From Candidatus Omnitrophica bacterium UBA6215 (GTDB taxonomy: Bacteria > Omnitrophota > Gorgyraeia > Pluralincolimonadales > Pluralincolimonadaceae): DNA of 64,000 nt. The stretch lies in the NCBI GenBank assembly GCA_002421665.1, contig DISH01000004.1, forward strand, positions 381,900 through 445,899. The letters run 5' to 3'. Of the stretch, positions 18 to 41,416 are shown piece after piece. The stretch's first letter is position 1, and each line of letters starts with the position of its first letter. The position numbers and the translations under genes are program-made. Under the pieces are notes generated by a model. The model worked only from the letters and a program-made list of their open reading frames with translations, was not told the origin of the DNA and made no database searches.

Positions 18-746
18 ATGGAATCAATCGGGTCGAGATTAAGATCCGCTCGCGAATCTAAAGGCATTACCCTTGACCAGGCGCAAAGGGACACGCGAAT
101 AAGCTCAAGGATACTGTCAGCCCTCGAGAGCGACAGGATCGCCGAGATCGTATCCGGGCCGGTCTATATCAAGAGTTTCATAAAAAAATATGCCAATTAC
201 CTCGGTCTCAACGGCACCGACCTGGCCGAAGGTTTTACCGGTGAAAAACCCGGCTTCAAGGACCAAATATCGATATTAGCCAAGGACAACAGCCCCGGTC
301 AATTTCCCGTAAAGAAAATAATTTTATGGATCGTCGCGGCCGTTGTGCTGGTACTCGCCGTAAAACTGGCCGTTCTTGCCGTATCCAAGACAGCAGCATT
401 CTTTAGATCAAGGCCTGAGGTAGCAAAGAAGGAGCCTGCCGCAGCGGCCGCTAAACCCGCGCCCAAACAGGAAAAGGCGGTCGAAAGGCCTGTTGTTAAT
501 ATCCCTAAATACGATGTCCTGGTCCTGACCGTCAAGTCGCGTGCGGATGTTTACCTTAAGATCAAATCCGACGGGAGATTGATCTTCGAAGGGACCCTCA
601 AGAAAGGCTTGGAGGAGAAGTGGGAAGCCAGGAATTCTTTCGAATTATCGACAAGCAAAGCCGAATACCTCACTTTGGATCTGAACGGTACTTCGCTGGG
701 TTCTCTCGGCAAAGGTGTCGTAAAAGGTCTCAAACTGCCCAAATAG
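18..746 (+). CDS. HTH (XRE-type) domain membrane protein, RodZ-like
   Basis: N-terminal helix-turn-helix (SRLRSARESKGITLDQAQRDTRISSRIL), a central TM helix, a Pro/Ala/Lys-rich linker and a C-terminal beta-rich domain. This matches RodZ architecture. Confidence 0.55.
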   Translation: MESIGSRLRSARESKGITLDQAQRDTRISSRILSALESDRIAEIVSGPVYIKSFIKKYANYLGLNGTDLAEGFTGEKPGFKDQISILAKDNSPGQFPVKKIILWIVAAVVLVLAVKLAVLAVSKTAAFFRSRPEVAKKEPAAAAAKPAPKQEKAVERPVVNIPKYDVLVLTVKSRADVYLKIKSDGRLIFEGTLKKGLEEKWEARNSFELSTSKAEYLTLDLNGTSLGSLGKGVVKGLKLPK

Positions 747-8501: not shown

Positions 8502-11500
8502 ATGTATAAGTTCATCGCGCTCTTTGCCGTTCTGACCGTGTTTTTGTCCGTCGCTCAACTCGCCTTTGCCGATAAGGCATGGAAAGCTTCTGCTTCTACC
8601 ATCGAAGATAAATTTGAGCCCCAGTTTGCCATAGATGGGGACCTTTCTACCCGCTGGTCCAGCCAATTTGCCGATAACCAATGGTGGAAAGTCGATTTGG
8701 GCGGGCCTGTAAATATCAAAAAAATAACGATAATCTGGGAGGACGCCTATGCCGTTGAATACAGGATACTGTATTCAACGGATGGCAAGCAATGGCAGCA
8801 GGTGTTCGAAAATAAGCAGGGCAAAGGCGGTTGTGAAACGTTGGTTATCCAGAGCCCGATAGAGCCCCGTTATATAAGGATGGACTTTGTAAAAAGGGCG
8901 ACCGAATGGGGGAATTCCATAAGGGAGATAAGGTTCAATGACCCGGACCCGATAAAGGTCAGGGCAACCGCTTCTTCGGGGGATTCCGATTACAGCGCGG
9001 ATAAAGCTATTGACGGGAACGTGCAGACCCGTTGGTCAAGCAACTTCGAGGACAACCAATGGTGGCAGGCTGAGTTCGATACTTCCCACAGGATATGCGG
9101 GGTTATACTGAAGTGGGAAACCGCCTTCTCCGAGATATATAATATCGAGGTAAAGGACGCCTCGGGTAAATGGAAAAAAGTATACGAGACCGCAGACGGC
9201 GACGGCAATACGGACATAATCTATTTTACCCCAATAGAGACATCCGCATTGAAGATAAACTGCATACAGAGGGGAACGGGTTGGGGCAATTCACTCTGGG
9301 AGGTCACTTTTCTGGACGGTAGTAACCCTCCCCTTATCTCTTCAACAGGTAAAGTTATAGATATCGGTCTTCCTTCGAGGATGGACCTCGGGGGCATAGT
9401 ACTGTCCTGGGGGGAGAGATATCCAAAAGACTATACGCTCGAGATATCGCCGGACGGTCAGTCCTGGAAAGAAGTGTTTAAGACGTCGGAAGGCAACGGT
9501 AAGAAAGACTGGATATATTTCAAGTCTTCGCCGGTAAAATTGTTCAGGATCAATTGCGCGGGCGCCGTGCCCAAGGGAGGTTTCGAGCTTAAGGGTTTTG
9601 AACCCAAGAGTTCCGAGGAACAGGCTACCCCCATAAAGAGCTACCAGGCGCTGGCCAAGGAGGCGCCTGCGGGATACTACCCGATGTGGCTCAGGAGACT
9701 GCAGGAGTTCTGGACGGTGGTAGGCACCGCAGACTCCAATGATGAAGGCCTGTTGAGTGAAACGGGGACATTCGAACCGTATAAGAACGGTTTTTCGATC
9801 ATGCCTTTCGTTTACGATGGCAGAGAACTTGCAACTTCCGAGAACTGTAAACTTGATCAGAGCCTGCTTGACGATAACCTGCCTATACCGACCGCGAGAT
9901 GGGACCATGGCGATTGGATACTGGATATAACGGCTGTAGCGGTATCTTCGTCGTCATCAGAGGTCAGGTACCGCTTTAAGAATACCGGTAAACAGGTTTT
10001 TACCGGGAATTTGTTCCTGGCCGTAAGGCCCGTCCAGGTCAATCCTGTATGGCAGAGGGGCGGGTTCAGCCCGATTAACAAAGCGGAATGCAGACCCCCG
10101 GTTTTATCCATCAACGGACAGGACAAGATATTATCGGCTGAGCAGGACGTCAAGATGGGTGTCGCCGGGATCGCCTCCGGCGATGTGGTCGAATACATGA
10201 AGAGAGGAGGCCTGCCAACCGCGCAGGAGCTAACTGACCAGGAAGGGATGATTTCCGCCGGGCTCTGCTATGACCTGGTAGCCGCTCCCGGAGAAGTCAG
10301 GGATTTTGTGATACAGGTACCGGCTTCCCGTCCGGCAGAGGATTTCACGAAAGCTTTCGGCCAGCAGCGCGCGTACTGGTCCGATATCGAGAACAGGATA
10401 TTGATAGATATCCCGGAGAAGAGGCTGATAGACGTGATGAGGACGAATATCGCCTATATATTGATCAACAAGGATGGCCCTTGGATAAAGCCCGGGTCGC
10501 GTAATTACAGCCATTCATGGATACGCGACGGCGCGCTTACCAGCGCGGCCCTCCTGAAAATGGGTATCGATAAACCGGTAAAACAGTGGCTCGACGCAGT
10601 TGCGTCGAAAGTTGCGGTTAATGGTTACGTCCCCTACATAGTATTCGAGGACGGTAATCCCGTAGGTTTTAACGATAACGGTTCGGGCGAAGGGGTGGAA
10701 TGGGATGCACAGGGAGAGTTCGTATACGCGGTCCGCAACTATGTGGATTATTCCGGGGACAGGGAGTACCTTCCTGCCGTATATCCAAAAGTTGTAAAGG
10801 CTCTAGAGTTCATAAGGACGCTTCGCCGCCGTAATATGACGAGTGAATTCTCCGGCGATCCCGCCAAGAAAGCTTATTACGGGATATTGCCGAAATCCAA
10901 CAGCCATGAAGGATATTATCCCGCTCAGCATAGTTACTGGGACGATTTCTTCGCGATAAGGGGATTCAAGGACGGCATCTATCTCGCCGAAATGATGGGA
11001 GATACCGAGAATGCCGCATGGATGCAGGAAGAGCTCGATGACTTGCGCAAATGCGTATACGGTTCAATAGAAATCGTTGTAAAGAGGGATAAGCTCGATT
11101 ATATCCCAGGTTGCGTGGAAAAAGGCGATTTTGACGCCACATCCACGGCGATAGCCATAGTTGCCGCCGGAGAGCTTGATTATATGCCAAAGGACCTGCT
11201 GAAAAAGACGTTCGATAAGTACTATAATGATTTCAAGAAAGGGATGGTGCCAGGGCACGAGAGGACATTTACCCCGTACGAGGTCCGTTCCGCCAATGCT
11301 TTCTTCAAGATGGGCATGCGTGACCACGGGTTGACGATGCTGCGTTACTTCGTAAAGGATTCGGTCAGGCCTTACGGATGGAACCACATGGCAGAGGTTG
11401 TGCACGCCAAGCCCCGGGCGCCGTCGTATATCGGAGACATGCCCCATACATGGGTGGGTTCCGGTTACATAGACGCCGTCCGGACGATGTTTGTATATGA

Positions 11501-11732
11501 GGACAACGGTAAGCTTGTGCTCGGCGCCGGCCTTGACCCGGAATGGTTCGAGAAGGGTATAGAGGTAAGGGATCTTCCCACGCTTTACGGCAAAGTATGT
11601 TATAAAATAGTAAAAAAGGAAGATAAAATAGAATATTTTATATATGGCAACGCCAAGCCTCCACGGGGTTTCAAGTTTGTCCTGCCAAAAGAACTTGAGG
11701 GTTGTAAGATCGAGGAGATGCGGGCTGAATGA
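8502..11732 (+). CDS. secreted multi-discoidin (F5/8 type C) domain glycoside hydrolase, six-hairpin / GH15-like catalytic region
   Basis: Signal peptide cleaved after AFA. Three clear ~130-aa discoidin repeats (AIDG..TRWSS.F.DNQWW...I..I.I.WE.A....Y.I..S.DG..W) plus a fourth divergent one. C-terminal ~700 aa carries glucoamylase-like motifs (YSHSWIRDGALTSAALLKMG). Confidence 0.7.
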   Translation: MYKFIALFAVLTVFLSVAQLAFADKAWKASASTIEDKFEPQFAIDGDLSTRWSSQFADNQWWKVDLGGPVNIKKITIIWEDAYAVEYRILYSTDGKQWQQVFENKQGKGGCETLVIQSPIEPRYIRMDFVKRATEWGNSIREIRFNDPDPIKVRATASSGDSDYSADKAIDGNVQTRWSSNFEDNQWWQAEFDTSHRICGVILKWETAFSEIYNIEVKDASGKWKKVYETADGDGNTDIIYFTPIETSALKINCIQRGTGWGNSLWEVTFLDGSNPPLISSTGKVIDIGLPSRMDLGGIVLSWGERYPKDYTLEISPDGQSWKEVFKTSEGNGKKDWIYFKSSPVKLFRINCAGAVPKGGFELKGFEPKSSEEQATPIKSYQALAKEAPAGYYPMWLRRLQEFWTVVGTADSNDEGLLSETGTFEPYKNGFSIMPFVYDGRELATSENCKLDQSLLDDNLPIPTARWDHGDWILDITAVAVSSSSSEVRYRFKNTGKQVFTGNLFLAVRPVQVNPVWQRGGFSPINKAECRPPVLSINGQDKILSAEQDVKMGVAGIASGDVVEYMKRGGLPTAQELTDQEGMISAGLCYDLVAAPGEVRDFVIQVPASRPAEDFTKAFGQQRAYWSDIENRILIDIPEKRLIDVMRTNIAYILINKDGPWIKPGSRNYSHSWIRDGALTSAALLKMGIDKPVKQWLDAVASKVAVNGYVPYIVFEDGNPVGFNDNGSGEGVEWDAQGEFVYAVRNYVDYSGDREYLPAVYPKVVKALEFIRTLRRRNMTSEFSGDPAKKAYYGILPKSNSHEGYYPAQHSYWDDFFAIRGFKDGIYLAEMMGDTENAAWMQEELDDLRKCVYGSIEIVVKRDKLDYIPGCVEKGDFDATSTAIAIVAAGELDYMPKDLLKKTFDKYYNDFKKGMVPGHERTFTPYEVRSANAFFKMGMRDHGLTMLRYFVKDSVRPYGWNHMAEVVHAKPRAPSYIGDMPHTWVGSGYIDAVRTMFVYEDNGKLVLGAGLDPEWFEKGIEVRDLPTLYGKVCYKIVKKEDKIEYFIYGNAKPPRGFKFVLPKELEGCKIEEMRAE

Positions 11733-27009: not shown

Positions 27010-27552
27010 ATGAGTTCGAATAAACGCATGCACCGTCGCCTGGCGCTTGACGTAGAAGTCAAGTGGCACAGGAAAAAGGACAAATCCTCAAGCAGCAAAG
27101 CTTACATGTTAAGAAGCAAGAATTTCGCTCAACACGGGCTGTTCCTGAAGACGGACAAGAAGTTCAGGATCGGGATGGATATGGACCTCGAATTCATCCT
27201 TCCGACCATATCCCACCCCGTCTGCGTATCGGGAAAAGTTGCATGGATCGCGGACAAGGACAGAAACCCTACATATTATCCGGGCATAGGAGTAAAATTC
27301 GTTAAAATTGACCCGGAAGACAAGAAAGAACTCATGAAATTCCTTAACCGTAAGTTCCGCAATTATAAAGACGCACAGGAGCTTAAAAAAATGTACCTGA
27401 CCCTTATAGATATGGGCGCAAGGCTTGTGGAACTCGGAGAAAGGCATCCCGGAGCCATCTATTTCAAGAAGGCGGTGGATAATTCGATAAAAGAGATCTC
27501 CGAGGTGGCCCACCTTATAGACAAGGAAGTATCCGAGATTAAGAACCTTTAG
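27010..27552 (+). CDS. PilZ domain-containing protein (putative c-di-GMP receptor)
   Basis: RxxxR motif (RMHRR) near the N-terminus, N-x-A-x-x-G at the second motif position, and G-I-G-V-K-F characteristic of the PilZ C-terminal strand. Starts 4 nt after the trpF stop. Confidence 0.55.
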   Translation: MSSNKRMHRRLALDVEVKWHRKKDKSSSSKAYMLRSKNFAQHGLFLKTDKKFRIGMDMDLEFILPTISHPVCVSGKVAWIADKDRNPTYYPGIGVKFVKIDPEDKKELMKFLNRKFRNYKDAQELKKMYLTLIDMGARLVELGERHPGAIYFKKAVDNSIKEISEVAHLIDKEVSEIKNL

Positions 27553-28414: not shown

Positions 28415-30400
28415 ATGATCCTGCCGAGCGGTCTGTTCGCCAACAAGGACCCGGTCGCAGAAGAAGGGTTCTCCTGTTCCCGTACTTTCGGAAAAGGAGG
28501 AATACTTTCAAAGGTTTTCCGGGATTATGAGTTCAGGCCGCAGCAGAAAGAGATGGCCGAATCCGTGGAAAGGGCAATCCGGGCAGCCCGCCATCTTATT
28601 GTCGAGGCCGGCACCGGGGTCGGAAAATCGTTCGCATATCTTGTGCCCGCGGCTGATTTTGCTATAAACTCAGGCAGGAAAACCGTCATATCTACCGATA
28701 CCATCAGCCTGCAGGAGCAGCTTGTAAGAAAAGACCTTCCTCTTGTTTCGAGGATACTTCCGGACGAATTTAAGTTCTGCCTGGTGAAGGGCCGGTCCAA
28801 TTATCTTTGCCTTAGGAGGCTCAACAGGGTCTTCTCCTCGAAGAATGACCTCTTCGATTCAAAACAGGAGGCCGGGGAGGTGGGTGATATACTCGCGTGG
28901 TCAAAAGTCACTACTGACGGCTCCCTATCGGACTTTGCCGCTGAACCTTCGCGCAAGGTATGGGAAAAAGTATGTTGCGAACACGATACCTGCCTGAGCA
29001 AGAAATGTCCGCACAGGAACGAATGTTTCCTTATGCAAGCCCGCCGGAACATGCAGGAATCCGACCTGATAGTCGTGAACCATCACCTGTTCTTCTCCGA
29101 CCTGGCTCTGCGCAAATCCGACTGGGCCCTGCTGCCTGATTATTCATGCGTGATATTCGATGAGGCCCATACCATCGAGGATGTCGCGACAGAACATCTG
29201 GGCTTTGAGGTATCTAATTACAAAGTAAAATATCTTTTGGACTCCCTTTACAACCCCTCAAAAAAGAAAGGGTTCCTTGTATCGGTAAAGAATAGCTCTC
29301 TTAAAAGAACGGTAACTGCTGTCCGTGAAGCTTCGGAAAATTTCTTCGCGGATATCTCGGATTGGCTTGGCGCCTACGGCGTAAAAAGGGTAAGGGAACC
29401 GGGTTTTATAGATGACACGCTATCCGGACCCATGAAAGAACTTTACGAAAGCCTTAAAAAGGCCATGAAAGGTTCCCGCTCCAAGGATGAAGAACTGGAT
29501 TTCAGGTACTATATGAATAGGCTGGAAGGATTATCCCAGGAATTGGAGATCTTCATGGACCAGAAATTGGGAGATTATGTTTATTGGTCCGAAGTATCGG
29601 GCAGCAGGTCCCGCAGGACGGCGCTCGATTGCGCTCCGGTCAATATAGCCGCGGCTCTAAGGGAAAACCTTTTCTCGAAGACAGGGACCGTGATCCTTAC
29701 AAGCGCTACCCTGTCAACCGAAGGTAATTTTGAATATATAAAGGGCAGGCTCGGCCTCGATAAGTGCTCGGAAAAACTGCTCGGTTCGCCGTTCGATTAT
29801 GAGAATAACGTCAAGATATACATTCCCAGGAACATGCCGGACCCTAACGATTATGCAAAATACAAGACGGAGGCCGTAGCCAGGATAAAGGACTATGTAT
29901 CAAGGACCGAAGGCAGGGCATTCGTCCTTTTTACCAGTTACAGGTTTATGGACGATGCCTATAATGAGACGGCTGATTTTTTCGAGAATATGGGCATCCC
30001 GATACTTAAACAGGGCGCCGGTTTGCCCAGGACGAAGATGTTGGAAGCCTTCAAGCGGGACAAGGGCTCCGTGATATTCGGGGTGGACTCTTTCTGGACA
30101 GGCGTGGACGTACCCGGTGAAGCCCTCAGCAACGTAATAATAACAAAACTTCCTTTTGCCGTGCCTGACCACCCCATATCGGAAGCCAGGATGGAAAGGA
30201 TAAAGGAGGCGGGGGGAGATCCCTTCAACATGTACAGCCTCCCGCAGGCGATACTCAAGCTCAAACAGGGTTTCGGGAGGCTTATCCGCACGAAACTCGA
30301 TACCGGCATGGTCGTCATACTCGACAGCAGGATACTCCACAAACCTTACGGAAGAAAGTTTTTGTCGGCGCTGCCTAATTGTGAGATAATAATCCAATGA
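28415..30400 (+). CDS. dinG: ATP-dependent DNA helicase, DinG/Rad3 (XPD) family with Fe-S cluster
   Basis: Walker A GTGVGKS, DEAH box (VIFDEAHTIED), four-Cys Fe-S insertion (CCEHDTCLSKKCPHRNEC) and helicase C_2 domain. Confidence 0.85.
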   Translation: MILPSGLFANKDPVAEEGFSCSRTFGKGGILSKVFRDYEFRPQQKEMAESVERAIRAARHLIVEAGTGVGKSFAYLVPAADFAINSGRKTVISTDTISLQEQLVRKDLPLVSRILPDEFKFCLVKGRSNYLCLRRLNRVFSSKNDLFDSKQEAGEVGDILAWSKVTTDGSLSDFAAEPSRKVWEKVCCEHDTCLSKKCPHRNECFLMQARRNMQESDLIVVNHHLFFSDLALRKSDWALLPDYSCVIFDEAHTIEDVATEHLGFEVSNYKVKYLLDSLYNPSKKKGFLVSVKNSSLKRTVTAVREASENFFADISDWLGAYGVKRVREPGFIDDTLSGPMKELYESLKKAMKGSRSKDEELDFRYYMNRLEGLSQELEIFMDQKLGDYVYWSEVSGSRSRRTALDCAPVNIAAALRENLFSKTGTVILTSATLSTEGNFEYIKGRLGLDKCSEKLLGSPFDYENNVKIYIPRNMPDPNDYAKYKTEAVARIKDYVSRTEGRAFVLFTSYRFMDDAYNETADFFENMGIPILKQGAGLPRTKMLEAFKRDKGSVIFGVDSFWTGVDVPGEALSNVIITKLPFAVPDHPISEARMERIKEAGGDPFNMYSLPQAILKLKQGFGRLIRTKLDTGMVVILDSRILHKPYGRKFLSALPNCEIIIQ

Positions 30401-32295
30401 TGAAGAAACACGGCGGGATAATTATAGGGCTCATTTGCGCTGTTGCCATAGCCATACCTTACTTCCTGGGGTTTTTTGAGCTTGCGGAATACCAGGGACT
30501 CGATCTCCTGTTCAAGGTACGCGGGCCAAGGCAGGTCAGCCAGGATATAGTTATCGTGGAAATAGACGACAGGGCAATAAATGATTTCGGCCGGTGGCCG
30601 TGGCCGAGAGGCTATCACGCCGAGTTCCTGGACATGATAGAAGAATTCGAGCCGAAAGCCGTCGTCTTTGATATCCTTTTCAGCGAAAAAGATGCGGAAC
30701 ACCCTGATGATGACATGCAGCTCGCTGCTATGACGAAGAAGCTGGGGAACGTATTCTTCGCCTCGTTCTTTGACTTAAGCAGTGACAAAGTTGCCAAGAG
30801 AAAGAACCTCAGGGCCCATAAGGAAACTATACCTTTCAAGATTCTGGCGGATAACGCCAGGGGATTCGGCTTCGTGAATATACTGGTGGAACCCGACGGG
30901 AAAGTAAGGAAAATACCTCTTTTTATCTCGCGTGACGGGCAGCTCAAACCCTCGATAGACATTCTTGCCGCCTCATATTTCACGGAATCGGACCCTTTTA
31001 AGCTATACGCCCCGACTGACGGAAAAGGGTTTATGTGGATCAATTATCCCGGGTCATTCGACCTTTTCAAGAAAATATCCTTCTCTGATATACCCATATC
31101 CATAGATCAGATGGAAAGAGGGGAGGAACCCGCCTTAAACCTCAATATACTCAAGGGAAAGATAGTCCTCGTTGGTTTAACCTCTACGGCATCAGAGGAT
31201 TACTGGTCGACATCTTTCTCGGCCCTATACCCCGGGGTAGGCATAAGAGCAAGCTCTATCGATACCATGCTCAGGAAAGATTATCTTTACCGCATATTCG
31301 TACCGGAGGTATGCCTTATTATCGTGGCTATAGGCCTGGCATTCGGTATCGTACTTCCGAAACGTACTCCCATGCAGGGGCTCATCTTCTTCTTTGTGAT
31401 TATTGCCGGAGTATCTGCCCTTGCAATAATAGATTTTGCGTTTTTTAACATCTGGATGGATTTTGTGTCGATAATCATCCTTTGCTTAATAGCCTATCCT
31501 GCCATAACCTTGAACCAATTCATAATAACCCGGTTCGAAAAAGGTATGATCGAGAAGGAACTGCAGATAGCCAGCCGTATACAGCAATCCATATTGCCGC
31601 AGGGCCTGCCACAGGTCCCCGGAGTGGATGTCGGCGTCAAATGCATGCCCGCGAAACATGTAGGAGGGGATTTTTACGATTTCATCAAGCTCTTCTATGA
31701 TTTTGTAAAGTTAAAAGAGGACAGGCTGGGGGTAGTAATAGGCGATGTCTCCGGCAAAGGCGTTCCTGCCGCTCTTTTTATGGCAAAATCCATGGCGGAT
31801 TTCAGAGGCATTTCCCATAATTTTAACGAAACTGACCGGGCGCTTTCCGCCATAAACGACAGGCTTACGGAAGAAGGTGTTTCAGGCATGTTCGTGACTA
31901 TGCAGTACCTGATCTATAAACCCCGGGAACGCAAGATAGAATATTCAAACGGAGGGCATAACCCGCTGGTAAAAGTAGACGCCGCAGGCAATGCCTTCCT
32001 CTTGACCCTGTCCGTGGGTACCCCTATAGGCATAATACCGGGATCTGATTTTACCTCAGACGAATTTCCGGTAGCAGCTGGAGAGCTTTTCCTGATGTAT
32101 ACTGACGGCATTTCTGAGGCAAGGGACAAGAACGGCAAGGAGTTTGGCGAAGACAGGATATTGGAAAGCGCCAAAAAATACAGGAATGGCAAAGCGCAGG
32201 AAATTGCAGATAAAATAGTAGCGGATGTCGTAGAATTCAGCAGGGGGATGCCCCAGCACGACGATATGACGGTAATCGCGCTGAAGATATTATGA
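30397..32295 (+). CDS. CHASE2 sensor domain / PP2C (SpoIIE-type) serine phosphatase membrane protein
   Basis: N-terminal TM + CHASE2 (IVIVEIDDRAINDFGRWPWPRGYHAEFL), central multi-TM block, C-terminal PP2C domain (GDFYDF, VVIGDVSGKGVPAALFMA, MYTDGISEA, HDDMTVIAL). Confidence 0.75.
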   Translation: MMKKHGGIIIGLICAVAIAIPYFLGFFELAEYQGLDLLFKVRGPRQVSQDIVIVEIDDRAINDFGRWPWPRGYHAEFLDMIEEFEPKAVVFDILFSEKDAEHPDDDMQLAAMTKKLGNVFFASFFDLSSDKVAKRKNLRAHKETIPFKILADNARGFGFVNILVEPDGKVRKIPLFISRDGQLKPSIDILAASYFTESDPFKLYAPTDGKGFMWINYPGSFDLFKKISFSDIPISIDQMERGEEPALNLNILKGKIVLVGLTSTASEDYWSTSFSALYPGVGIRASSIDTMLRKDYLYRIFVPEVCLIIVAIGLAFGIVLPKRTPMQGLIFFFVIIAGVSALAIIDFAFFNIWMDFVSIIILCLIAYPAITLNQFIITRFEKGMIEKELQIASRIQQSILPQGLPQVPGVDVGVKCMPAKHVGGDFYDFIKLFYDFVKLKEDRLGVVIGDVSGKGVPAALFMAKSMADFRGISHNFNETDRALSAINDRLTEEGVSGMFVTMQYLIYKPRERKIEYSNGGHNPLVKVDAAGNAFLLTLSVGTPIGIIPGSDFTSDEFPVAAGELFLMYTDGISEARDKNGKEFGEDRILESAKKYRNGKAQEIADKIVADVVEFSRGMPQHDDMTVIALKIL

Positions 32296-32808
32296 GAGAT
32301 GCCTTCTTTTTATCAAACGCCTCGCGCCAAGAACGGATCCGCCCGCGACAAAAAGAATTGTGCTGATCGGCTCGGGGACGGAAGTGGGGGAGCCCGCGAT
32401 ATTGAACCAGGTCGAACCTTCACCTGAATCAAGGACCTGGGAAGACCCTATCCTAAAATAATACCAATCGGCGTCAATTGTCCATTTACCCGCGTTCGAA
32501 GGGTCGGACCAGTCGTAAGTACCCGACAAGTCTATCCAGTATGTTTGCTTGAGCCCGTAGCTGCTATCTTCCGCTTTTAGCGAAGAACCCAGGTACCAAT
32601 CTGATTCAACCCTTGATGTCCAATAACCTTCCGGAGCTTCGGGAAGTTTAACATATAAATAGGGAATCTCCCCGAGCTTAAAATCCCAGTTAGGTTCGGT
32701 AGCCATCTCGCTCTTAACCGGATAGATCACTATCCCGCTGTCGGCGAAAGATATGCAGGGGAAAAGAAAAAACATAACCGCTACTGCGCTTATCAAGATC
32801 TTATTCAT
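32290..32808 (-). CDS. small secreted aromatic-rich protein with C-terminal PEP-CTERM sorting signal
   Basis: Signal peptide. C-terminus VPEP-ISTILFVAGGSVLGA-RRLIKRR matches PEP, a hydrophobic span and an Arg-rich tail. Mature part is W/Y/D/S-rich. Confidence 0.6.
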   Translation of the reverse strand: MNKILISAVAVMFFLFPCISFADSGIVIYPVKSEMATEPNWDFKLGEIPYLYVKLPEAPEGYWTSRVESDWYLGSSLKAEDSSYGLKQTYWIDLSGTYDWSDPSNAGKWTIDADWYYFRIGSSQVLDSGEGSTWFNIAGSPTSVPEPISTILFVAGGSVLGARRLIKRRHLS

Positions 32809-32865
32809 TCAAGGCCTCATTTATTGGTATGAAATATACTGATATAGTAGGCTATAAATTGCGGA

Positions 32866-32890
32866 ATGTCAAGTTATTTTACCTTGACAT
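32866..32890. promoter_or_regulatory. palindromic operator-like site ATGTCAAG-(9 nt)-CTTGACAT overlapping the -35 box. A third TGTCAA half-site lies at 32897-32902.
   Basis: Perfect 8-bp inverted repeat read directly from the sequence, in the divergent intergenic region between the PEP-CTERM gene and the TPR-barrel gene. Confidence 0.45.
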
Positions 32891-32912
32891 AATATATGTC
32901 AAATGATATACT
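32884..32912 (+). promoter_or_regulatory. sigma70 promoter TTGACA, 17 nt spacer, TATACT, driving the TPR-barrel / giant protein / SurA-N-like cassette
   Basis: TTGACA at 32884-32889 and TATACT at 32907-32912, ~75 nt upstream of the ATG at 32986. Confidence 0.5.
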
Positions 32913-32985: not shown

Positions 32986-34503
32986 ATGCCGGTAAGGTCC
33001 AAGTCTACGGTGGTAGTTTTGGTAATTTTGTCAACGCTTTTTTCCATTATCCCTCTACAACAGGCCTGTTGCGAAACAAATCCCGACATAGAACAAGGTG
33101 TAAAACTTTACAGGCAGGAAAATTTTGATGAAGCTGTGCCCATATTACAAAAGGCCAGGAAAGAAAACCCCGATTCCTCGCTGGCCGCGTATTACCTGGG
33201 TATTACTTACAAGCAGCTTCAGGATTACAGGCAGGCCAGATCACAGCTCATTGACGCCGTCACGCTTACTCCCCGTATAAAAGAAGCTTTGGTCGAGCTG
33301 ATAGATGTAATGTACCAGCTGGGGGATTTCAAGGGAGCGAAAGAATATATTGAAATTGCAGAGAGGGAAAATATCAAACCTGCGCAGGTTGCTTTCCTTA
33401 AAGGCCTTGTCCTCCTGAAAGACGGAGAGGCAGCCGATGCCATAACAGCTTTCGAACAGGCAAAAGGCCTGGATAACTCCTTAACCCAGGCCGCTGATTA
33501 CCAAATCGGCATCGCGAATTTAAAAGAAAAGAATTATAAGGACGCCAAGAAGGTTTTCCAGGAGATAATAATACTCGATCCTAATTCCGACCTCGCGGGC
33601 CTGTCATATGAATATATGGATGCCCTGAAGCGCAAGGAGGAGGCCGAGAGGCCGTTCAGGGCCACGCTTAACGTCTCGGGCCAATACGACACTAATGTAT
33701 TGCTGAAGCCGGGAGACGATACCGTAGCTACCGGGATAACCAATGAAAGCGACTGGAGGGAAGTAACTAATTTCATGGGCCAATACAGGCAGAAGATCGG
33801 AGAAAAATTCGGCATAGACAGCCAGTATTCGATGTACTGGGCCCACCAGAACAAGATCGGCGCGTACGATGTCATGAGCCATACCGTGACGGTAACGCCC
33901 AACTATTACATAAAGAACGGGACTATCGGTGTGGCTGCCGGCTACAACTACACTGATGTCGGAGAATCCAAATATATGACTACTATTACCGCCAGCCCGG
34001 TCGTTAACTACGTTATCAGGAATAACCATATGCTTCAGGCGAATTTCAAGTACCAGAAGAAAGATTTCGCAAGGGAATCTTTCATTGACGATGAGAACAG
34101 GGATTCCAATGATTATGGCGGAGGTTTGGGCTATTTCTTTTTCTTTGCCCAGAACAAGGGTTTCTTCGGGCTGCACTATGGTTTAAATAAGGAAGATACC
34201 AAAGGGCGGAACTGGGAGTATCTCGGCAACAGGATCACCGCCACGGCATTGATACCTTTCCTTAAGAAATTCAGATTGAGTCTCGCCGGCGATGTTTTAC
34301 TCCAGGATTTCTCCAACACGAACAGTATATTTAATGTTAAACGTAATGATGAGACCTATACGGCATCTTCCATGCTCGGTTATACATTTTGGAAAGAGGC
34401 GGAACTGCAGTTCAGGTATACGTACATAAAGGACCATTCAAATATAAAAGTATATGATTATGACAGAAGCATCTACAGCGTTGGGATCGAGTATAAATTT
34501 TAA
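32986..34503 (+). CDS. outer-membrane protein with N-terminal TPR domain and C-terminal beta-barrel (Slam/DUF560-like architecture)
   Basis: Signal peptide, ~190 aa of TPR-like repeats (AAYYLGITYKQLQDYRQA..., VAFLKGLVLLKDGEAADAITAFEQA...), then ~290 aa of amphipathic beta strands ending in the canonical OMP beta-signal (IYSVGIEYKF, alternating hydrophobics, terminal Phe). Confidence 0.6.
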   Translation: MPVRSKSTVVVLVILSTLFSIIPLQQACCETNPDIEQGVKLYRQENFDEAVPILQKARKENPDSSLAAYYLGITYKQLQDYRQARSQLIDAVTLTPRIKEALVELIDVMYQLGDFKGAKEYIEIAERENIKPAQVAFLKGLVLLKDGEAADAITAFEQAKGLDNSLTQAADYQIGIANLKEKNYKDAKKVFQEIIILDPNSDLAGLSYEYMDALKRKEEAERPFRATLNVSGQYDTNVLLKPGDDTVATGITNESDWREVTNFMGQYRQKIGEKFGIDSQYSMYWAHQNKIGAYDVMSHTVTVTPNYYIKNGTIGVAAGYNYTDVGESKYMTTITASPVVNYVIRNNHMLQANFKYQKKDFARESFIDDENRDSNDYGGGLGYFFFFAQNKGFFGLHYGLNKEDTKGRNWEYLGNRITATALIPFLKKFRLSLAGDVLLQDFSNTNSIFNVKRNDETYTASSMLGYTFWKEAELQFRYTYIKDHSNIKVYDYDRSIYSVGIEYKF

Positions 34504-34520: not shown

Positions 34521-37500
34521 ATGAAGAAATTTTGCGTAAAACTACTGGCCCTGGTAACGGTAATGGGAGGGATATTCCTTACCTGTTCACCGTATTCTCT
34601 CGCGGATGTTATCGGAAAAATATCCGCTACCGAGGGAAGGGTTGACCTGTTGAAATCCGGCGGCGATACCGCCTCCGAAGTCAGGGTCGGTGATTGCGTA
34701 TCCTCAGGGGACATACTAAGGACCAAGAGCGGATCCAAGGCGGAGATCGCCTTTACCGATACGTCCGTAGTCAGGTTATCCGAAAACACCAGGCTGGAGA
34801 TCACAGATTACGGTTTTGGTCCAGGCGGAAAAAGAGCTGACGCTGCCCTTTTTCTTGATAGGGGCAAGATCAGAGCTATACTCTCAAGATCAGCGGAAGG
34901 GAGCTTCGTGATCAACACCCCTAACGCTGCCGGAGCGGTAAAAGGTACGGATATAGTGGCGATATACCAGAGGTCTTCGACCTCAATCGCCGCGCTCAAC
35001 GGCAAAGTTTTGGTCTCAGGAATGTCACCCTCAGGTAAACCGGTTGAACTGACAAGCGGTCAAACATCCGTAATCTCCGGAGAGACAGCTCCAAGCGCGC
35101 CCAGAATACTGCTTTCCATGGAGATTAAAGCGCACGAATCAGATACGGGAATATCCAAAGGATCTATGGCGGCGGAAAAATCTTCCGATGATAAGATGAC
35201 TGCTGAAGGTTATAGCGCACCCGATGGTATGAAAGCCGTAGTAACAAAAACCGCCGGCGGCGTAAGGATAAAGAACCGCGGATCAATAACGTGGCATGAC
35301 GCCAGAGAAAATGAAGTCCTCGCCGCGGGTGATTCCGTAGAAACTAAGGATAACGGAAAGATAGAGATAAGACTTGAGAACGGTAACGTAATAACATTGC
35401 AGCAGAACTCCAGCCTTATAATTCAAAAACTTTCATCCGACAGCAAGACCGGCAATTACGAGAACCTTCTTGAGTCCGGCGGCGGAAAACTCCGGGCCCA
35501 GGTACAGAAGATAAAGGGCAATTCGAAGTTCGAGGTCAAGACCCCTAATGCAGTTGCTTGCGTTCGCGGTACGATAATGTACCTGAACATATTACCTGGC
35601 CTGACAAACTCATATTTCGAAGAAGGCAACGGAACGCTTCGAAATCTAATCTCGGGGACAGTAAAAGACGTCCCTATCGGAACGGGCGCTGCCGCGGACG
35701 GCAATGGTAATATATCGGACCCGGTCCCGCCAAGCGATGACCAGAAATCGCAATGGCACCAGGGTTGGGATGTCGGCGGTGAAGCCGAAGGCTATTCAGC
35801 TCCTTCCGGGGACTTGGGTCAGGGCGGCGACTCAGACAACAACAGCGGAGATACAGGTTTCCAGAACGTCGTTTTCGACGAAAAACCGGTAACGGATATT
35901 ATCGGCACTACGGAGAGCGGGGGCGGTCCGGGCGGCAGCGAAGGCGAAGGGGGCATAACTAACCCCTATATAACAGGAACTTCATCCGGCAGTTTCGGGT
36001 TCGTCGAACCGGACGAGTATAATAATTTTGACGCTGTTCTCTCCAGCAACACCGTATTATCTTCGCCGTGGGCCGGGCAACTCGATCTTCACGTAAGCGG
36101 CGAATTCATGAGTCCGGGATACAGGATATTCGAAGGCAATATCACCGCTGCGAGCGTTGATGGAGGTACGTCCTTCGGATGGGTAGGCGGCATAATGCAC
36201 AGTTGGGAAGGAATATTATCTTCTATATATATAGATCCTTCCGGCAGGGCAGGCAACCTGTTCGGGTATTTATCCGGTACGAACACCGTAGAAACCGGGA
36301 CCGGATCCTATTACGGCGATTTCTCGGGCAGCGGTGATATTTTTGTTATCCAGATGGCTCAATTAGAGGCTGGCATCGAGTATCCGGTAGAATACGGTGA
36401 AGGATATGGTGACCTGCGCTTGGCTTTCAATAACGGGAACGGCTTGTTCTACGCTGATTTCGACAGGCAGCTGGCCAGGATAGAGGGACAGGATTGGGGG
36501 ATCTGGAGGGATGCTTACCGCGGGAGTTATTATAATCCGGATAATTTGAATGAATGGATCGGAAATGCAGGCGGCCGTTACGGAGAAAAAGGTTATTTCT
36601 TCGCGACTGTCGAAGGCATTGACGATCTTGAGGGCGGAGTCAGGATGGACATGACCGGCGCCTATCTGGATATGTATACGCTTGGGGCATACTACGGCTC
36701 TATTCTCGCCGGCTATGGAGAAGGAACGGAAGGAATCGGGTTGGGCGGATATACTGAAGAAGCCCTTACCTCCAGCGCAATACACGGAAACTACAGTTAT
36801 TCGGGACAATTAAGCGGCATTTTAGGCACTACAGGCTCGCTTTGGTCTGGCAGTCCGTTCTATCTGACATCCATAGGCAATCTTGAGGATGAGTACGATG
36901 GCGAATTTGATAATTTTATATGGTATACCGATTTCATAAGCACCGACAACGATAACGAAAGATATACGGCCTACTCGGCGGAAGAAGGAATAGGCTCTTA
37001 CTACGGCACTACCTCAGGCGTAGGCAAAGACAACACCATGAAGGGGTTCAGCAGGTTCATCTATATAGATCCCTCCGGGTATGCCGGAGTATTCAAGGGA
37101 AGTGTTGACGGCGCTTATTCGCAGGCAATAGGCATGTATATTTTTGACGGAAAGGCCGCAAGAGATACCTCGGTGGATCCAGTGTTTGTAAGCCTGTCCC
37201 CGGAAGCCCTCAACTATTCCATATGGCTTAATTCCGGCGAAGGTAACCTTGAGGGTTATTATTCGGATGGAGGGCGCGTATATGGTTATGACAACCTCTA
37301 TTCAGCCTCAATCGCCGATTTCGGGAACGGGACAGCCCAGAACTGGGGTATTTATAACCAGCGGATAATCGGACAATCCTACATGGAACTCGCGGACGAC
37401 TTTTCCGCTAAGATGGGCGGCAAAGACAGTTTTGGTTGTTATAATCCTACGATAATGCACTATAATACATATAATTCCGGCGACGGGGCCTCTTATAGCT

Positions 37501-40500
37501 GCGAATATTCGGAAAATAACAGGTACGGGTATTCTTACAGGTACGAACCGGGCCCGGACACATATAAGTATACCTATACTTATTATTACGCGGACGGCAC
37601 AACATACACGAACACATGCATTTATGACAGCGGCTGGAATTACCTTTCCGGCGACGGGGTATATGATACTTGGGATACTTCATCTTCTTTAGCGGACCTG
37701 TTAAGCGCGGCACCGGAAGGCTACAGCCTTTCATCTGAAAGCTCATATTCTTATGCCGAAAATGATTACGGCTTTTGGATAGCCGATGTGAACGCTTCCG
37801 GAAGCGATTGGTTTGACGGGACTCTTAACGGCGCGTTCATTACATATACAAAGATGGGCCTGATGCAGGGTGATCTCACCGGTTCATATACAGATGATAC
37901 CGGCGGGTGGATAGCCGCCGGCTCAGGCACTTGGAATGGCAACCGGCTTACCATGAGCGGCATGTGGGGTGAGGACACAAGTAGTCTGTACGAGAACAGT
38001 TACGGATATCCGTCCTTAGCCGGTGAAGAATACGGGCTTCTCGGCTCTACGGTCGAGGAGTGGTGGAATAAAACCTCTTTCCCTGTATTGGCGATGGGCA
38101 GATACTATTCTTACGGCACGGACGATCAGCCTATAATCTGGATAACACCGTTCAACAGCTATAACGCCGAGATGGATAACCATACCTCTCTCGACGGTTC
38201 AGCGTTCTACGGTCTTACCGCGGGCATATGGAAAGACGGCTTGATGTCGGACGCAAAGGCTGTTGCAATATACGCTGCCCCGGATGGAAGTATGGGTATA
38301 ATCAAGGGAAACCTTGGCGGAGAATACTATCCGGGTCTGGATATGTGGATGGCAACCGGATCTTTGTCCGCCCTGCAAAAAAGCGGAGAATCAATAGACC
38401 CGGCATCCCTTTACGAGAGTATAACTACCTCGGATATGCCGTATTTATACGCCGGGGGTTCGATTGATGGAGCGGTCGTTTACGGTGAATCTTCCGACGG
38501 ATACTTATATTCAGTCGACGAAGGTCAGTGGGGCATATTTGATTTCAAGACCGGCGGCAACTATAACGACGAATGGGTTGAATCCAAAGAGAAGGGCCTT
38601 GCCTTCGGATTCACGGACGGTCTTTACGGGCCTTCCATGCTCCTGACATCGACCGACGCGTCCGTCGGTGACGGTACCATCGCCGGCACTCTTTCCGGAT
38701 CTTGCATAGACCTTCTCGAAGGAACTATAAGCAAGCTGAACGGCGATATCCGCGGAATTTACGACAGCGATAATAATACCTGGATCGCCGCGGCCATCGG
38801 CGAATGGGAAAAGAAATTACTCGCCTACAGCGGTGTCGTAATGGAAGGCGGGTTCGGTTATTTTTACGGCGAAAACGAAGGACCTTATCTGGATGACGGC
38901 GGGCTTGACGCGATAATGGGCGGCTCCGACGACCTCTTTGACGGTTCAGCCGAGATCTCGATAGTCGGGAACGCGTGGAACCCGGACTACAATGAGGATT
39001 GGACGGGCGACGATAAGCTGTGGGCAGGCGATTTCTTCATAACTACCGACGATAACGCCGCAGCCACGGGTACGATAGGAGGTACCAGCCTGAACAACAG
39101 CTTCAAAGGCGCTTTGCTTGGTCTGTACATCCGCCAGACGCAGGACGGTTACAAAGCAGGATATATAACTTCTTCCGACGCCTTCGGGAACCGCGACTTC
39201 CTTTCGGGGAATTTCTATCCGTCATTATCAATGTTCAGCGCCGAAGGCAGCCTAACGGCTTTCATGGATACTCCTACGGAATTCACGCCGGAAGATATAC
39301 TTTTTGGCAATGAATCCGCTTTGCTGAGCGATGACTTCTATGACCCGATCGTCGGGGACCTCAACGGCGACCTTTACGGTGAGGACCTCCAGATAGCGGA
39401 CCAACAGTGGGGAGTCTGGCGCGCGGGATGCGGCGGTTGGCTCGATTCCGTCCCGGCCGGCAATTGGAATTCTTACATAGCCGAAAGCTTTGAAGACCAA
39501 TACGGGGAATATTCGTTCCCGTATTATTCACTCATCTATATCGACGGAACCACTACCGCGGACAACGGGCTTGAGGCCGTTATACACGGTTACGACCTCG
39601 GTATGACATACCTAAGCGAGGCTTCGGGGTTGATGGCCGGCGATTATGATACCGGCGAGATGAGATGGGAAGGCCTTAGTTTGGGGACTTGGGTTGAGAA
39701 GGAATTAACTCTCAGCGGACTCGCCTCCGGGGGAATAAGAGCCGCCGGAGACTGGGATAACTGGTTTGACCCGGGCGACAGTTATGAAGACTTCTCCGGA
39801 GAATTCTCCGGTATAATAGGATCTACGCAGACCGGATGGCAGGACGGAAGTTTTAAGGCCGTAGCAATGGGTGATTATGCGATCAACGAGTCCGCCAATT
39901 CATACCTGCTCAACGCTGAAATGGGAAGTTTTAATGCACGCGAGATATCTCCGGTTACCCTCGACGGGGAAGGTGCTTTCTACGGGTTTGCCCACGCGGC
40001 TGTCGGAGATTCTGCCGATGGCAGGCTGACGGATACCGCTTCGGGATTGAGGCTGGCCGCCATATATATAGCTTCTAACGGGACCGGCGGCTATAATGCG
40101 GGAGTGCTAAGGGGCGGGCTTGACATGGATCTAGTGGAGATCCCCTACGACGGTGAAGTCGGCATGTGGATAGCCGAAGGCTACCTGACCCCTTACGCAA
40201 TGGAAACCGATATCGGCATCTCTCCGGAAGAACTACCGGATTATATATCCTGGGACTGGGAAGTGCTCGGTGCTTCGGGTGTCGGCTCGTTCTCAAACGG
40301 CGGCGCCATCCAGGCCGATTACTTTACCGGGGACACGATGTCCATAGAAGGCTACGACCAGTGGGGGATAATGCAGGCTGCCCTTACCGGACAAACATCC
40401 TCGGTCGTAGATTCGGATTGGAGATTGGCCTTGGGAGGCGCTTCTTATACCGACGATTCGCATGAGATTGCGGACGGTTATTTCCTTATCTCGGCCGGCG

Positions 40501-41126
40501 GAGATTCCTGGTCGAACAACGTATTTGACGGGACCTTCAGGGGCGTATACTTGAGCGAGATAGACGAAAATACCTTTAACGTCGGAAAGATAGAAGGTGA
40601 TGTCGTAGGCAATTACCAGCAGGTTGAAGGGGTAGATACCGTCTTCCAGGCACAGATGCTCGGAGAATGGGTAGATCTTGCGGAATTGAGCACGGATGTG
40701 CTTGGATTCAATAACGATGCGTTAGCCGAGATGGTCCAGATACCCGTCACGGAAACCTATACAGCGCTTCTGCAGGGTGCCGGCGGATTCGGACCCGCCG
40801 GGGATATCGGGGCTATAACATCCAATATGGACATAAGCTTCTATGCCCAGCAGGCAACCGACCTCAGCGGCATATGGGCTGCCCTGATAAACGGGAACTA
40901 CTCCGGGTATACCGGAAGCGACAATTGGTCTGTCAATTATTCCAATAACGGCGTTAACGCCACGCTTACGGGTACGCAGTGGAATGACGGACAATGGCTC
41001 GCGAACGTATCCGGAAATAACGGAAATTCTACATTTACCGGACAGGCGGGCGGCACCTATACCGGCACAGACAGCGGTACTTTTGATGGTGCAGGCGCCG
41101 GGACATGGAACACCCCGACTCCGTAA
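34521..41126 (+). CDS. giant (2201 aa) secreted protein with tandem N-terminal FecR domains and a ~1700-aa Gly/Tyr/Asp/Ser/Thr/Trp-rich degenerate-repeat region
   Basis: Sec signal (cleavage after SLA). First FecR-like domain at ~aa 35-160 (...FVINTPNAAGAVKGTDI) and second at ~aa 245-360 (...FEVKTPNAVACVRGTIMYL). The rest has extreme composition, almost no K or R, and recurring IYIDPSG.G..G and (Q/D)WG(I/V)(W/F) motifs. SD GAGGAG 7 nt upstream, 17 nt after the upstream gene. Confidence 0.7.
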   Translation: MKKFCVKLLALVTVMGGIFLTCSPYSLADVIGKISATEGRVDLLKSGGDTASEVRVGDCVSSGDILRTKSGSKAEIAFTDTSVVRLSENTRLEITDYGFGPGGKRADAALFLDRGKIRAILSRSAEGSFVINTPNAAGAVKGTDIVAIYQRSSTSIAALNGKVLVSGMSPSGKPVELTSGQTSVISGETAPSAPRILLSMEIKAHESDTGISKGSMAAEKSSDDKMTAEGYSAPDGMKAVVTKTAGGVRIKNRGSITWHDARENEVLAAGDSVETKDNGKIEIRLENGNVITLQQNSSLIIQKLSSDSKTGNYENLLESGGGKLRAQVQKIKGNSKFEVKTPNAVACVRGTIMYLNILPGLTNSYFEEGNGTLRNLISGTVKDVPIGTGAAADGNGNISDPVPPSDDQKSQWHQGWDVGGEAEGYSAPSGDLGQGGDSDNNSGDTGFQNVVFDEKPVTDIIGTTESGGGPGGSEGEGGITNPYITGTSSGSFGFVEPDEYNNFDAVLSSNTVLSSPWAGQLDLHVSGEFMSPGYRIFEGNITAASVDGGTSFGWVGGIMHSWEGILSSIYIDPSGRAGNLFGYLSGTNTVETGTGSYYGDFSGSGDIFVIQMAQLEAGIEYPVEYGEGYGDLRLAFNNGNGLFYADFDRQLARIEGQDWGIWRDAYRGSYYNPDNLNEWIGNAGGRYGEKGYFFATVEGIDDLEGGVRMDMTGAYLDMYTLGAYYGSILAGYGEGTEGIGLGGYTEEALTSSAIHGNYSYSGQLSGILGTTGSLWSGSPFYLTSIGNLEDEYDGEFDNFIWYTDFISTDNDNERYTAYSAEEGIGSYYGTTSGVGKDNTMKGFSRFIYIDPSGYAGVFKGSVDGAYSQAIGMYIFDGKAARDTSVDPVFVSLSPEALNYSIWLNSGEGNLEGYYSDGGRVYGYDNLYSASIADFGNGTAQNWGIYNQRIIGQSYMELADDFSAKMGGKDSFGCYNPTIMHYNTYNSGDGASYSCEYSENNRYGYSYRYEPGPDTYKYTYTYYYADGTTYTNTCIYDSGWNYLSGDGVYDTWDTSSSLADLLSAAPEGYSLSSESSYSYAENDYGFWIADVNASGSDWFDGTLNGAFITYTKMGLMQGDLTGSYTDDTGGWIAAGSGTWNGNRLTMSGMWGEDTSSLYENSYGYPSLAGEEYGLLGSTVEEWWNKTSFPVLAMGRYYSYGTDDQPIIWITPFNSYNAEMDNHTSLDGSAFYGLTAGIWKDGLMSDAKAVAIYAAPDGSMGIIKGNLGGEYYPGLDMWMATGSLSALQKSGESIDPASLYESITTSDMPYLYAGGSIDGAVVYGESSDGYLYSVDEGQWGIFDFKTGGNYNDEWVESKEKGLAFGFTDGLYGPSMLLTSTDASVGDGTIAGTLSGSCIDLLEGTISKLNGDIRGIYDSDNNTWIAAAIGEWEKKLLAYSGVVMEGGFGYFYGENEGPYLDDGGLDAIMGGSDDLFDGSAEISIVGNAWNPDYNEDWTGDDKLWAGDFFITTDDNAAATGTIGGTSLNNSFKGALLGLYIRQTQDGYKAGYITSSDAFGNRDFLSGNFYPSLSMFSAEGSLTAFMDTPTEFTPEDILFGNESALLSDDFYDPIVGDLNGDLYGEDLQIADQQWGVWRAGCGGWLDSVPAGNWNSYIAESFEDQYGEYSFPYYSLIYIDGTTTADNGLEAVIHGYDLGMTYLSEASGLMAGDYDTGEMRWEGLSLGTWVEKELTLSGLASGGIRAAGDWDNWFDPGDSYEDFSGEFSGIIGSTQTGWQDGSFKAVAMGDYAINESANSYLLNAEMGSFNAREISPVTLDGEGAFYGFAHAAVGDSADGRLTDTASGLRLAAIYIASNGTGGYNAGVLRGGLDMDLVEIPYDGEVGMWIAEGYLTPYAMETDIGISPEELPDYISWDWEVLGASGVGSFSNGGAIQADYFTGDTMSIEGYDQWGIMQAALTGQTSSVVDSDWRLALGGASYTDDSHEIADGYFLISAGGDSWSNNVFDGTFRGVYLSEIDENTFNVGKIEGDVVGNYQQVEGVDTVFQAQMLGEWVDLAELSTDVLGFNNDALAEMVQIPVTETYTALLQGAGGFGPAGDIGAITSNMDISFYAQQATDLSGIWAALINGNYSGYTGSDNWSVNYSNNGVNATLTGTQWNDGQWLANVSGNNGNSTFTGQAGGTYTGTDSGTFDGAGAGTWNTPTP
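36140..41090 (+). repeat. in-frame degenerate protein-level tandem repeat (about 6 units of ~250-350 aa) inside the giant ORF
   Basis: Module A copies: SIYIDPSGRAGNLFGY, FIYIDPSGYAGVFKGS, AIYAAPDGSMGIIKGN, SLIYIDGTTTADNG, AAIYIASNGTGGYNAG. Module B copies: QDWGIWRDAYRG, QNWGIYNQRIIG, GQWGIFDFKTGG, QQWGVWRAGCGG, DQWGIMQAALTG, LSGIWAALINGN. They alternate at roughly regular spacing. Confidence 0.4.
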
Positions 41127-41416
41127 TGATACGTTATATAGCCCTGGTGTCAATTCTGGCTATTTTATTTCCCGGTTGCGGGAAGCCGGCCGCTAATCCG
41201 GCTTCCGCGCAGCCCGCGCCAAGGGTGCTCGCGACGGTTAACGGCGAACCTATATCCGATAAAGACCTGAAACTTTCCCTTGCCATACGCCTTATGGATG
41301 ATCCAGATTTCAAGGTAACTCCTTCCACTAAGAACGAACAGATACAGATGATCATCGACGAACGCCTGGAACTGCAGCGCAAGGACAGGGCTTCTTCGGA
41401 CATTAAGATATTCTGA
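41126..41416 (+). CDS. small lipoprotein/periplasmic protein with SurA N-terminal-like chaperone motif
   Basis: Start codon overlaps the giant ORF stop (TAATG). Signal MIRYIALVSILAILFPGC followed by VLATVNGEPISDKDLKLSLAIRL..., resembling the SurA/PpiD N-terminal domain. Only ~96 aa. Confidence 0.45.
   Translation: MIRYIALVSILAILFPGCGKPAANPASAQPAPRVLATVNGEPISDKDLKLSLAIRLMDDPDFKVTPSTKNEQIQMIIDERLELQRKDRASSDIKIF

Follow-up and report, generated by a model that had tools for sequence, protein, structure and literature searches.

Proteins that carry a PEP-CTERM sorting tail are numerous, and almost none has a known function. The question raised here is what one such protein is doing in the middle of a signalling and secretion gene cluster, and whether it is related to the giant repeat protein encoded close by. 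The DNA analysed (the window) is a stretch of 64,000 nucleotides from Candidatus Omnitrophica bacterium UBA6215, in which a small gene for a 172-amino-acid (aa) protein lies inside a cassette ordered as a CHASE2-PP2C sensor gene, the small gene, a TPR/beta-barrel gene, a gene for a giant protein with FecR domains, and a 103-aa open reading frame (ORF). A sequence-only reading of this locus had proposed a PEP-CTERM signal at the end of the small protein, and had cast it either as a co-regulated partner of the giant or as a relative of one of its repeat units. We consider it likely that the gene product is a small protein of the cell envelope from an unnamed PEP-CTERM family, which would be sorted by an exosortase, is accessory to the cassette and is not derived from the giant.

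The proposed ORF was confirmed (Table 1), with a GAGG ribosome-binding site 6 nt 5' of the start codon. Its product has an N-terminal signal peptide and, at the C-terminal end, a PEP motif, a hydrophobic transmembrane (TM) helix and a basic cluster, reading VPEP-ISTILFVAGGSVLGA-RRLIKRRHLS; residues 144-166 match the NCBIfam PEP-CTERM domain model TIGR02595 (18.2 bits; cutoff 16). An AlphaFold2 (AF2) model of the protein reached a mean pLDDT (predicted local distance difference test) of 91.2, with eight strands and a C-terminal helix, the helical segments being residues 3-14 and 148-171. The mature part matches no Pfam domain, none of the named PEP-CTERM subfamilies covers it, and searching the PDB with a sequence profile gave no match. 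A lipoprotein reading of the 'LFPC' stretch was rejected, there being no lipobox and C18 being unconserved. The exact protein sequence was recovered on 15-21 contigs from different assemblies. The small gene is, on these sequence features, a real gene for a small, predicted secreted protein with a PEP-CTERM sorting tail.

Its family emerged only with an exhaustive HMMER search, as a word-indexed search returned just the protein itself and one fragment. At E <= 1e-3 the exhaustive search gave 107 cluster representatives, nearly all of them 155-190 aa long and aligned over their full length. The 61 aligned members never vary at P49, G107, W109, L152 or the PEP motif and vary little or not at all at F153 and G156, and F43, Y52, W71, W100, F135 and A22 (the last within the AxA-type signal-peptidase site) are nearly invariant. 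TIGR02595 matches 34 of these 61 members, and is the only PEP-CTERM model matched by the small protein itself at E <= 0.1. None of the named PEP-CTERM subfamilies (FxDxF NF038126, PepA NF033554, NF038129, XDP1, etc.) gave a full-length match above cutoff; other family members reach such models via the tail alone or at sub-cutoff scores. Members derive mainly from metagenome-assembled genomes (MAGs) of Omnitrophota; outside this phylum, full-length representatives occur in one MAG each of Gammaproteobacteria (L025) and Thermodesulfovibrionia (L028). A scan of a genome collection, based on 11 family sequences, gave many loci that match the PEP-CTERM tail alone, mostly from Nitrospirota, and the distant members P0036 and P0042 sit on short contigs. 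A literature search on Omnitrophota or Omnitrophica together with PEP-CTERM or exosortase found nothing relevant. By profile comparison, the small protein thus falls into an unnamed PEP-CTERM family without a curated model, a compact and confidently folded family of about 165 residues, one member of which is tied to an exosortase locus in the same genome.

That locus lies outside the window, where, as the sequence-only reading had stated, there is no exosortase: Pfam searches with most of the larger window ORFs returned unrelated families, and five or more predicted TM segments occur only in the ORFs for a CDP-alcohol phosphatidyltransferase and PlsY. A regular-expression screen of the 408 window ORFs of at least 40 aa likewise revealed no second PEP-CTERM-like tail. 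The sequence-only reading had also called for a search for exosortase and other PEP-CTERM genes elsewhere in the genome, and this proved productive. In a related MAG, JBAZJG01, the small gene has a syntenic ortholog accompanied by the full cassette (L022), and a second locus (L035) is an array of PEP-CTERM genes adjoining a 282-aa exosortase. Searching with the L035 exosortase identified P0139, a 285-aa protein that is 73% identical to it and matches PF09721, on a 475,712-bp contig (k141_1177627) of which 20,519 bp around the small gene are 100% identical to window positions 22290-42808. P0139 lies about 270 kb from the small gene and scores well above the general exosortase cutoffs (TIGR02602, 151.4 bits, cutoff 105.55; TIGR04178, 66.3 bits, cutoff 23). 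With P0139 and the small gene on one contig, the genome does not lack an exosortase. The adjacent gene encodes EpsI (TIGR02914, 52.2 bits, cutoff 42.8), followed by four PEP-CTERM genes and several glycosyltransferase genes. The four tails read VPEPVSTxxFxLGG...RRxRR and resemble that of the window protein. One of these four, encoding 162 aa, is a full-length paralog of the small gene (111 bits with the family hidden Markov model (HMM), 34% identity, E=2e-15). The whole arrangement recurs in JBAZJG01, which also has the syntenic ortholog. The region around P0139 (L099, about 346-367 kb of the contig) further encodes a separate glycosyltransferase, an acyltransferase and a 481-aa secreted protein. 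From these profile matches, the single exosortase detected in the genome is assigned as an XrtV/XrtB-like EpsH enzyme, and the small gene is read as a paralog of the PEP-CTERM genes beside that enzyme which has dispersed to another site.

A different origin, in which the small protein would be related to one repeat unit of the giant, either excised from the giant or ancestral to it, had been suggested by the composition that both proteins have in common and by a single Y-x-I-D-x-S-G coincidence, YWIDLSG in the small protein and IYIDPSG in the giant. The shared composition held up. The mature part of the small protein contains 6.7% W, 8.3% Y and 14.2% S, and the giant 2.9%, 7.5% and 9.5%, over a window background of 1.1%, 3.3% and 6.3%, respectively; both proteins are also poor in R (1.7% vs 5.5% in the background) and lower in K (5.0% in the mature small protein and 1.5% in the giant vs 8.0%). 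Such W/Y/S-rich, K/R-poor compositions are typical of extracellular beta-rich proteins. The proposed resemblance of the two motifs, on the other hand, did not survive alignment. With BLASTP, the best segment between the small protein and the giant had E=0.32, and the segment that pairs YWIDLSG with IYIDPSG reached 13.5 bits at E=32. The family HMM gave no match on the giant even at a permissive setting (--max, -E 1000), whereas 169 of 300 shuffled versions of the giant did yield a score, at most 6 bits, and hhalign returned a probability of 0.3%. In syntenic orthologs the counterparts of YWIDLSG read YHIALSG, YHISLTG, YHIELIG, YWLTLPG and FWFTSPN, so the motif is unconserved.

The architecture of the giant points the same way. 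Behind its two FecR domains (residues 65-163 and 238-356; PF04773, 92 bits in two stretches) come six to seven diverged repeats, each of about 290 aa, vs about 115 aa for the domain of the small protein, and the positions that are invariant among the repeats are different ones, including the Y of IYIDPSG and the WG in QxWGIW. These repeats were detected and aligned only with an HMM built from orthologs: self-BLAST of the giant revealed no internal repeats at E <= 1e-3, a word-indexed search with a giant segment gave 2 matches, and the repeats match no Pfam family. An AF2 model of one repeat, made from an alignment of the internal repeats, had a mean pLDDT of 33.6 and was unusable for fold comparison. 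On the sequence comparisons we regard kinship between the small protein and a giant repeat as extremely improbable; at the level of sequence that reading, descent from the giant included, is refuted. A common composition and a single short motif had made homology a tempting conclusion, but a wrong one. Among relatives, the giant varies in length from 1794 to 2227 aa and, in the window, has a Tyr-rich insert in repeat 2 (about residues 1000-1060). In one assembly (L002, JGI 3300001592 contig) it was called as three ORFs of 903, 822 and 497 aa, most likely through frameshifts caused by assembly or sequencing errors within the repeats.

What ties the small gene to this locus is its position. The gene is convergent with the CHASE2-PP2C gene, which it overlaps by 6 bp, and is separated from the TPR-barrel gene by a divergent intergenic region of 177 bp. 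The sequence-only reading had placed the small gene and the giant on either side of one regulatory region. Divergent promoters are indeed predicted there, but the actual neighbour across the gap is the TPR-barrel gene, and the giant is the second gene of the operon, starting 18 bp past the TPR-barrel stop codon. The two sigma-70-like promoters predicted by a consensus scan stand back-to-back with 11 bp between their -35 hexamers. The -35 element of the small gene is kept as TGTCAA(G) in L010, L014 and L016, and the operon promoter is conserved in all relatives, including L005, which is without the small gene. As these back-to-back promoters are conserved, a shared regulatory region for the small gene and the TPR-barrel operon is plausible. 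The segment 32867-32902 holds three TTGACA/TGTCAA hexamers, and the two divergent -35 elements together make up an inverted repeat of 7 bp (TGTCAAG-N9-CTTGACA) that is kept in L014 and L016 and has one mismatch in L010. A palindrome in the operon promoter, TTGACATAATATATGTCAA, was considered as an operator and dropped, as it was seen in the window and L009 only.

Orthologs of the small gene occur between the CHASE2 and TPR genes in L010/L019, L020, L021, L022, L014 and L016. In L023/L017 the small gene is tandem-duplicated without an adjacent CHASE2 gene, and in L024 it shares the orientation of the operon, with 86 bp separating it from the CHASE2 gene before it and 20 bp from the TPR gene behind it. 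Because the arrangement is retained in lineages whose neighbouring proteins are 63-74% identical, and survives the orientation flip in L024, the positional link to the TPR-barrel/giant operon is non-random.

A metagenome scan with the TPR-barrel protein collected 80 loci (L102-L181) with 34-91% TPR identity. Most of them have a FecR-domain gene directly downstream, often with a CHASE2 sensor upstream or downstream, which identifies the TPR-barrel/FecR pair, often accompanied by CHASE2, as the conserved core. Cassettes were assessed for the small gene where at least 750 bp upstream of the TPR gene were available (62 loci), and the loci without a family member there showed no other PEP-CTERM-tailed ORF. 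In two distant cassettes, L129 (826-1992) and L177 (2567-3747), the upstream family member is followed by an unrelated 219-aa PEP-CTERM protein, the two appearing as a single 388-aa ORF in L129.

Several observations weigh against an exosortase-sorted accessory of the cassette. Only one of two domain models recognises the PEP-CTERM tail: TIGR02595 does, while Pfam PF07589 scores 16.2 bits, under its gathering score of 20.7. P0139 is below every curated Xrt subtype cutoff (nearest are XrtV, 193 bits vs 313, and XrtB, 175 vs 275). The small protein evolves much faster than its neighbours (36-46% vs 63-74% identity between lineages), and the ratio of nonsynonymous to synonymous substitution rates (dN/dS) is 0.14 for the small gene (against L009), vs 0.02-0.05 for the CHASE2 gene. 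In a sister lineage (L005-L008/L102) a clean deletion of about 580 bp, with a boundary at about 32875, has removed the small gene together with its promoter and left the operon promoter intact, while the neighbouring proteins remain close to those of the window (CHASE2, 94%, and TPR, 91% identical). Given flanking nucleotide identities of 0.90 between the window and L005 and 0.81 between the window and L009, and the presence of the small gene in outgroups, this absence is a loss. In L009 (107-678) the ortholog, 82-84% identical, has a 1-nt deletion near codon 40 that splits it into 68-aa and 122-aa ORFs with an altered C-terminal tail, representing either a decaying pseudogene or an assembly error on a 1.6-kb contig. 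Finally, only 8 of the 62 assessable cassettes have a family member upstream of the TPR gene; the small gene is not present wherever the TPR-barrel/FecR/CHASE2 cassette is present and is, by this distribution, a recurrent but optional add-on.

The loss in the sister lineage, the possible frameshift in L009 and the fast divergence could together suggest a decaying or spurious gene in a permissive intergenic site. We hold this to be very unlikely, as the dN/dS of the small gene is 0.14 and the gene is intact in the window and in every carrier lineage except L009. Its recovery as an identical protein from different assemblies, the confidence of the predicted fold, the conserved signal peptide, core residues and sorting tail, and a promoter-like site and ribosome-binding site of its own all argue in the same direction.

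More weight is due to the proposal that the small protein serves the giant as a dedicated partner under common regulation, e.g. as an anchor, as a nucleator or by binding to the CHASE2 sensor as its ligand, and that its position reflects a physical or regulatory interaction. The position beside the TPR-barrel gene is kept down to 43-48% TPR identity, tandem duplicates included (L023, L112, L177), and the copy in L024 was flipped into the orientation of the operon with a 20-bp spacing; the conserved back-to-back promoters and the extracellular-type composition common to both proteins would also fit. Against this stand the 54 of 62 assessable cassettes without the small gene, among them close ones (TPR identity of 91% in L102, 68% in L110 and 63% in L106), and the clean deletion in the sister lineage with the operon promoter left intact. 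In addition, the same genome has a paralog at the exosortase locus with no cassette nearby, and the family members in L025 and L028 have no detected adjacent cassette homolog. The non-random positional link thus stands, an obligatory partnership is weakened by the deletion and by the count of 8 in 62, and we judge a dedicated partner to be possible but rather unlikely.

As to the preferred reading of an exosortase-sorted accessory, the data show a real gene, its predicted fold, its tail and its family, an exosortase in the genome, the paralogy, the synteny pattern and the lack of sequence homology to the giant; export, exosortase processing, a place at the surface and whatever functional link there is to the giant are inferred. 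Going by known exosortase and archaeosortase systems, the small protein would be exported by Sec via its N-terminal signal peptide and stay anchored in the inner membrane through the TM helix at its C-terminus, until the exosortase encoded about 270 kb away, together with EpsI, recognises the VPEP motif. The tail would then be removed, and the immunoglobulin (Ig)-like beta-sandwich of about 115 residues may be passed to the surface or to an exopolysaccharide layer. In some Omnitrophota lineages the gene has settled directly upstream of the operon for the TPR/beta-barrel protein and the FecR giant, which is paired with the CHASE2-PP2C sensor, and would be transcribed from its own promoter back-to-back with that of the operon. 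A more specific version, which we regard as speculative and improbable as a whole, is that in a subset of Omnitrophota this Ig-like, exosortase-sorted protein was recruited as a working accessory of a TPR-barrel/giant surface system under CHASE2-PP2C control, in which it might serve as a surface receptor or anchor for the giant, or as a ligand read by the sensor. If true, this would connect PEP-CTERM sorting with a module for signalling and secretion, for which there is no description so far. In either case, the recurrent, optional placement of the gene beside a widespread, uncharacterised cassette offers a testable hint on the surface biology of a poorly known phylum.

Table 1. Positions of the small gene, its protein segments, the surrounding cassette and the exosortase locus (window coordinates unless a contig or residues are named).
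Feature	Position	Strand	Remarks
CHASE2-SpoIIE (PP2C) membrane sensor phosphatase	30397..32295	+	PF05226, 171 bits; PF07228, 165 bits
Small PEP-CTERM gene	32290..32808	-	172-aa ORF, ATG start
Small protein, signal peptide	residues 1-23		cleavage at about SFA/DS
Small protein, Ig-like beta-sandwich	residues about 27-138		~115 residues
Small protein, PEP motif	residues 145-147		
Small protein, TM helix	residues 148-165		
Small protein, basic cluster	residues 166-170+		RRLIKRRH
Small-gene promoter, sigma-70-like	32844..32872	-	TTGACA-17-TACTAT; consensus scan 10/12; predicted
Operon promoter, sigma-70-like	32884..32912	+	TTGACA-17-TATACT, extended TG; consensus scan 11/12; predicted
TPR + C-terminal beta-barrel outer-membrane-type protein	32986..34503	+	505 aa; first gene of the operon
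Giant protein gene	34521..41126	+	2201 aa; signal peptide, FecR domains, diverged repeats
103-aa secreted or lipoprotein-like ORF	41105..41416	+	closes the cassette; conserved in relatives
Small gene on ENA contig ERZ27315056:k141_1177627	about 85,806-86,324		
Exosortase P0139 on ENA contig ERZ27315056:k141_1177627	about 355,964-356,821		

In the TPR-barrel protein, Pfam places TPR_16/TPR_2 at about residues 37-200, and residues 349-505 match DUF2860 (24.2 bits, cutoff 22.9) and BBP2_2, with generic TPR matches only in a profile search against the PDB; its architecture weakly recalls outer-membrane proteins of the Slam/EpsL type (TPR_Slam, E=0.0019; EpsL, E=0.0018). The 103-aa ORF gave no family match and has a 56% identical ortholog in L022. 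The window as a whole is a housekeeping region, with genes for RodZ, MiaB, RecA, HtrA, AlaRS, LepA, signal peptidase, PlsY and ValRS as well as his, trp, thr and leu genes. Proteins encoded near the small gene assign the source to an uncultured Candidatus Omnitrophota MAG. The cassette, together with genes for a PilZ protein, an M48 peptidase and a DinG-like helicase, lies between trpF and trpB. The trp operon (22551-43494) is split accordingly, eight or nine unrelated genes standing between trpE, G, D, C and F on one side and trpB and trpA on the other, an arrangement conserved in related Omnitrophota MAGs (L005, L014, L016, L020-L022). A GAF-GGDEF diguanylate cyclase (5773-7296) and the PilZ-domain protein (27010-27552), the latter encoded just upstream of the cassette, suggest possible cyclic di-GMP signalling, and a 1076-aa protein with three F5/8 type C (discoidin) domains is encoded at 8502-11732.

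With respect to known systems, the closest precedent for the cassette is the 'BiofilmReg' operon of Burkholderia, in which a LysM-FecR protein is paired with a CHASE2 histidine kinase (PMC5192318). The two share neighbouring genes for a CHASE2 membrane sensor and an extracytoplasmic FecR-domain protein. The window cassette differs in having a sensor with PP2C phosphatase output and, as its FecR protein, a repeat giant with a TPR/beta-barrel protein encoded ahead of it, and no PEP-CTERM gene is described in the Burkholderia operon. The small protein itself is comparable to the FxDxF family of PEP-CTERM proteins (NF038126, a 165-aa profile) in its size of about 165 aa and in its architecture, where a single small domain stands between signal peptide and PEP-CTERM tail, and the same-genome paralog aligns to positions 37-164 of that profile. 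The paralog nevertheless scores 21.8 bits vs a cutoff of 50, and matches at E <= 0.01 are seen in 7 of the 61 family members, while the window protein has none at E <= 0.1. The resemblance of the fold to single matrix and adhesin domains of bacteria, such as RbmA of V. cholerae (4be5), and to the MG domains of alpha-2-macroglobulin, at 5-14% identity, is that of a generic Ig-like/FN3-like fold and implies no shared function. Compared with the general PEP-CTERM/exosortase system (TIGR02595, TIGR02602, TIGR02914), the case differs in an exosortase that attains no curated subtype cutoff, in a gene located 270 kb from it, beside a signalling and secretion cassette rather than an exopolysaccharide locus, and in a mature domain that fits no named PEP-CTERM subfamily. 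It is alike in the signal peptide, PEP motif, TM helix and Arg/Lys cluster of the small protein, and in a genome whose exosortase and EpsI genes are flanked by PEP-CTERM and glycosyltransferase genes, which is the classical layout.

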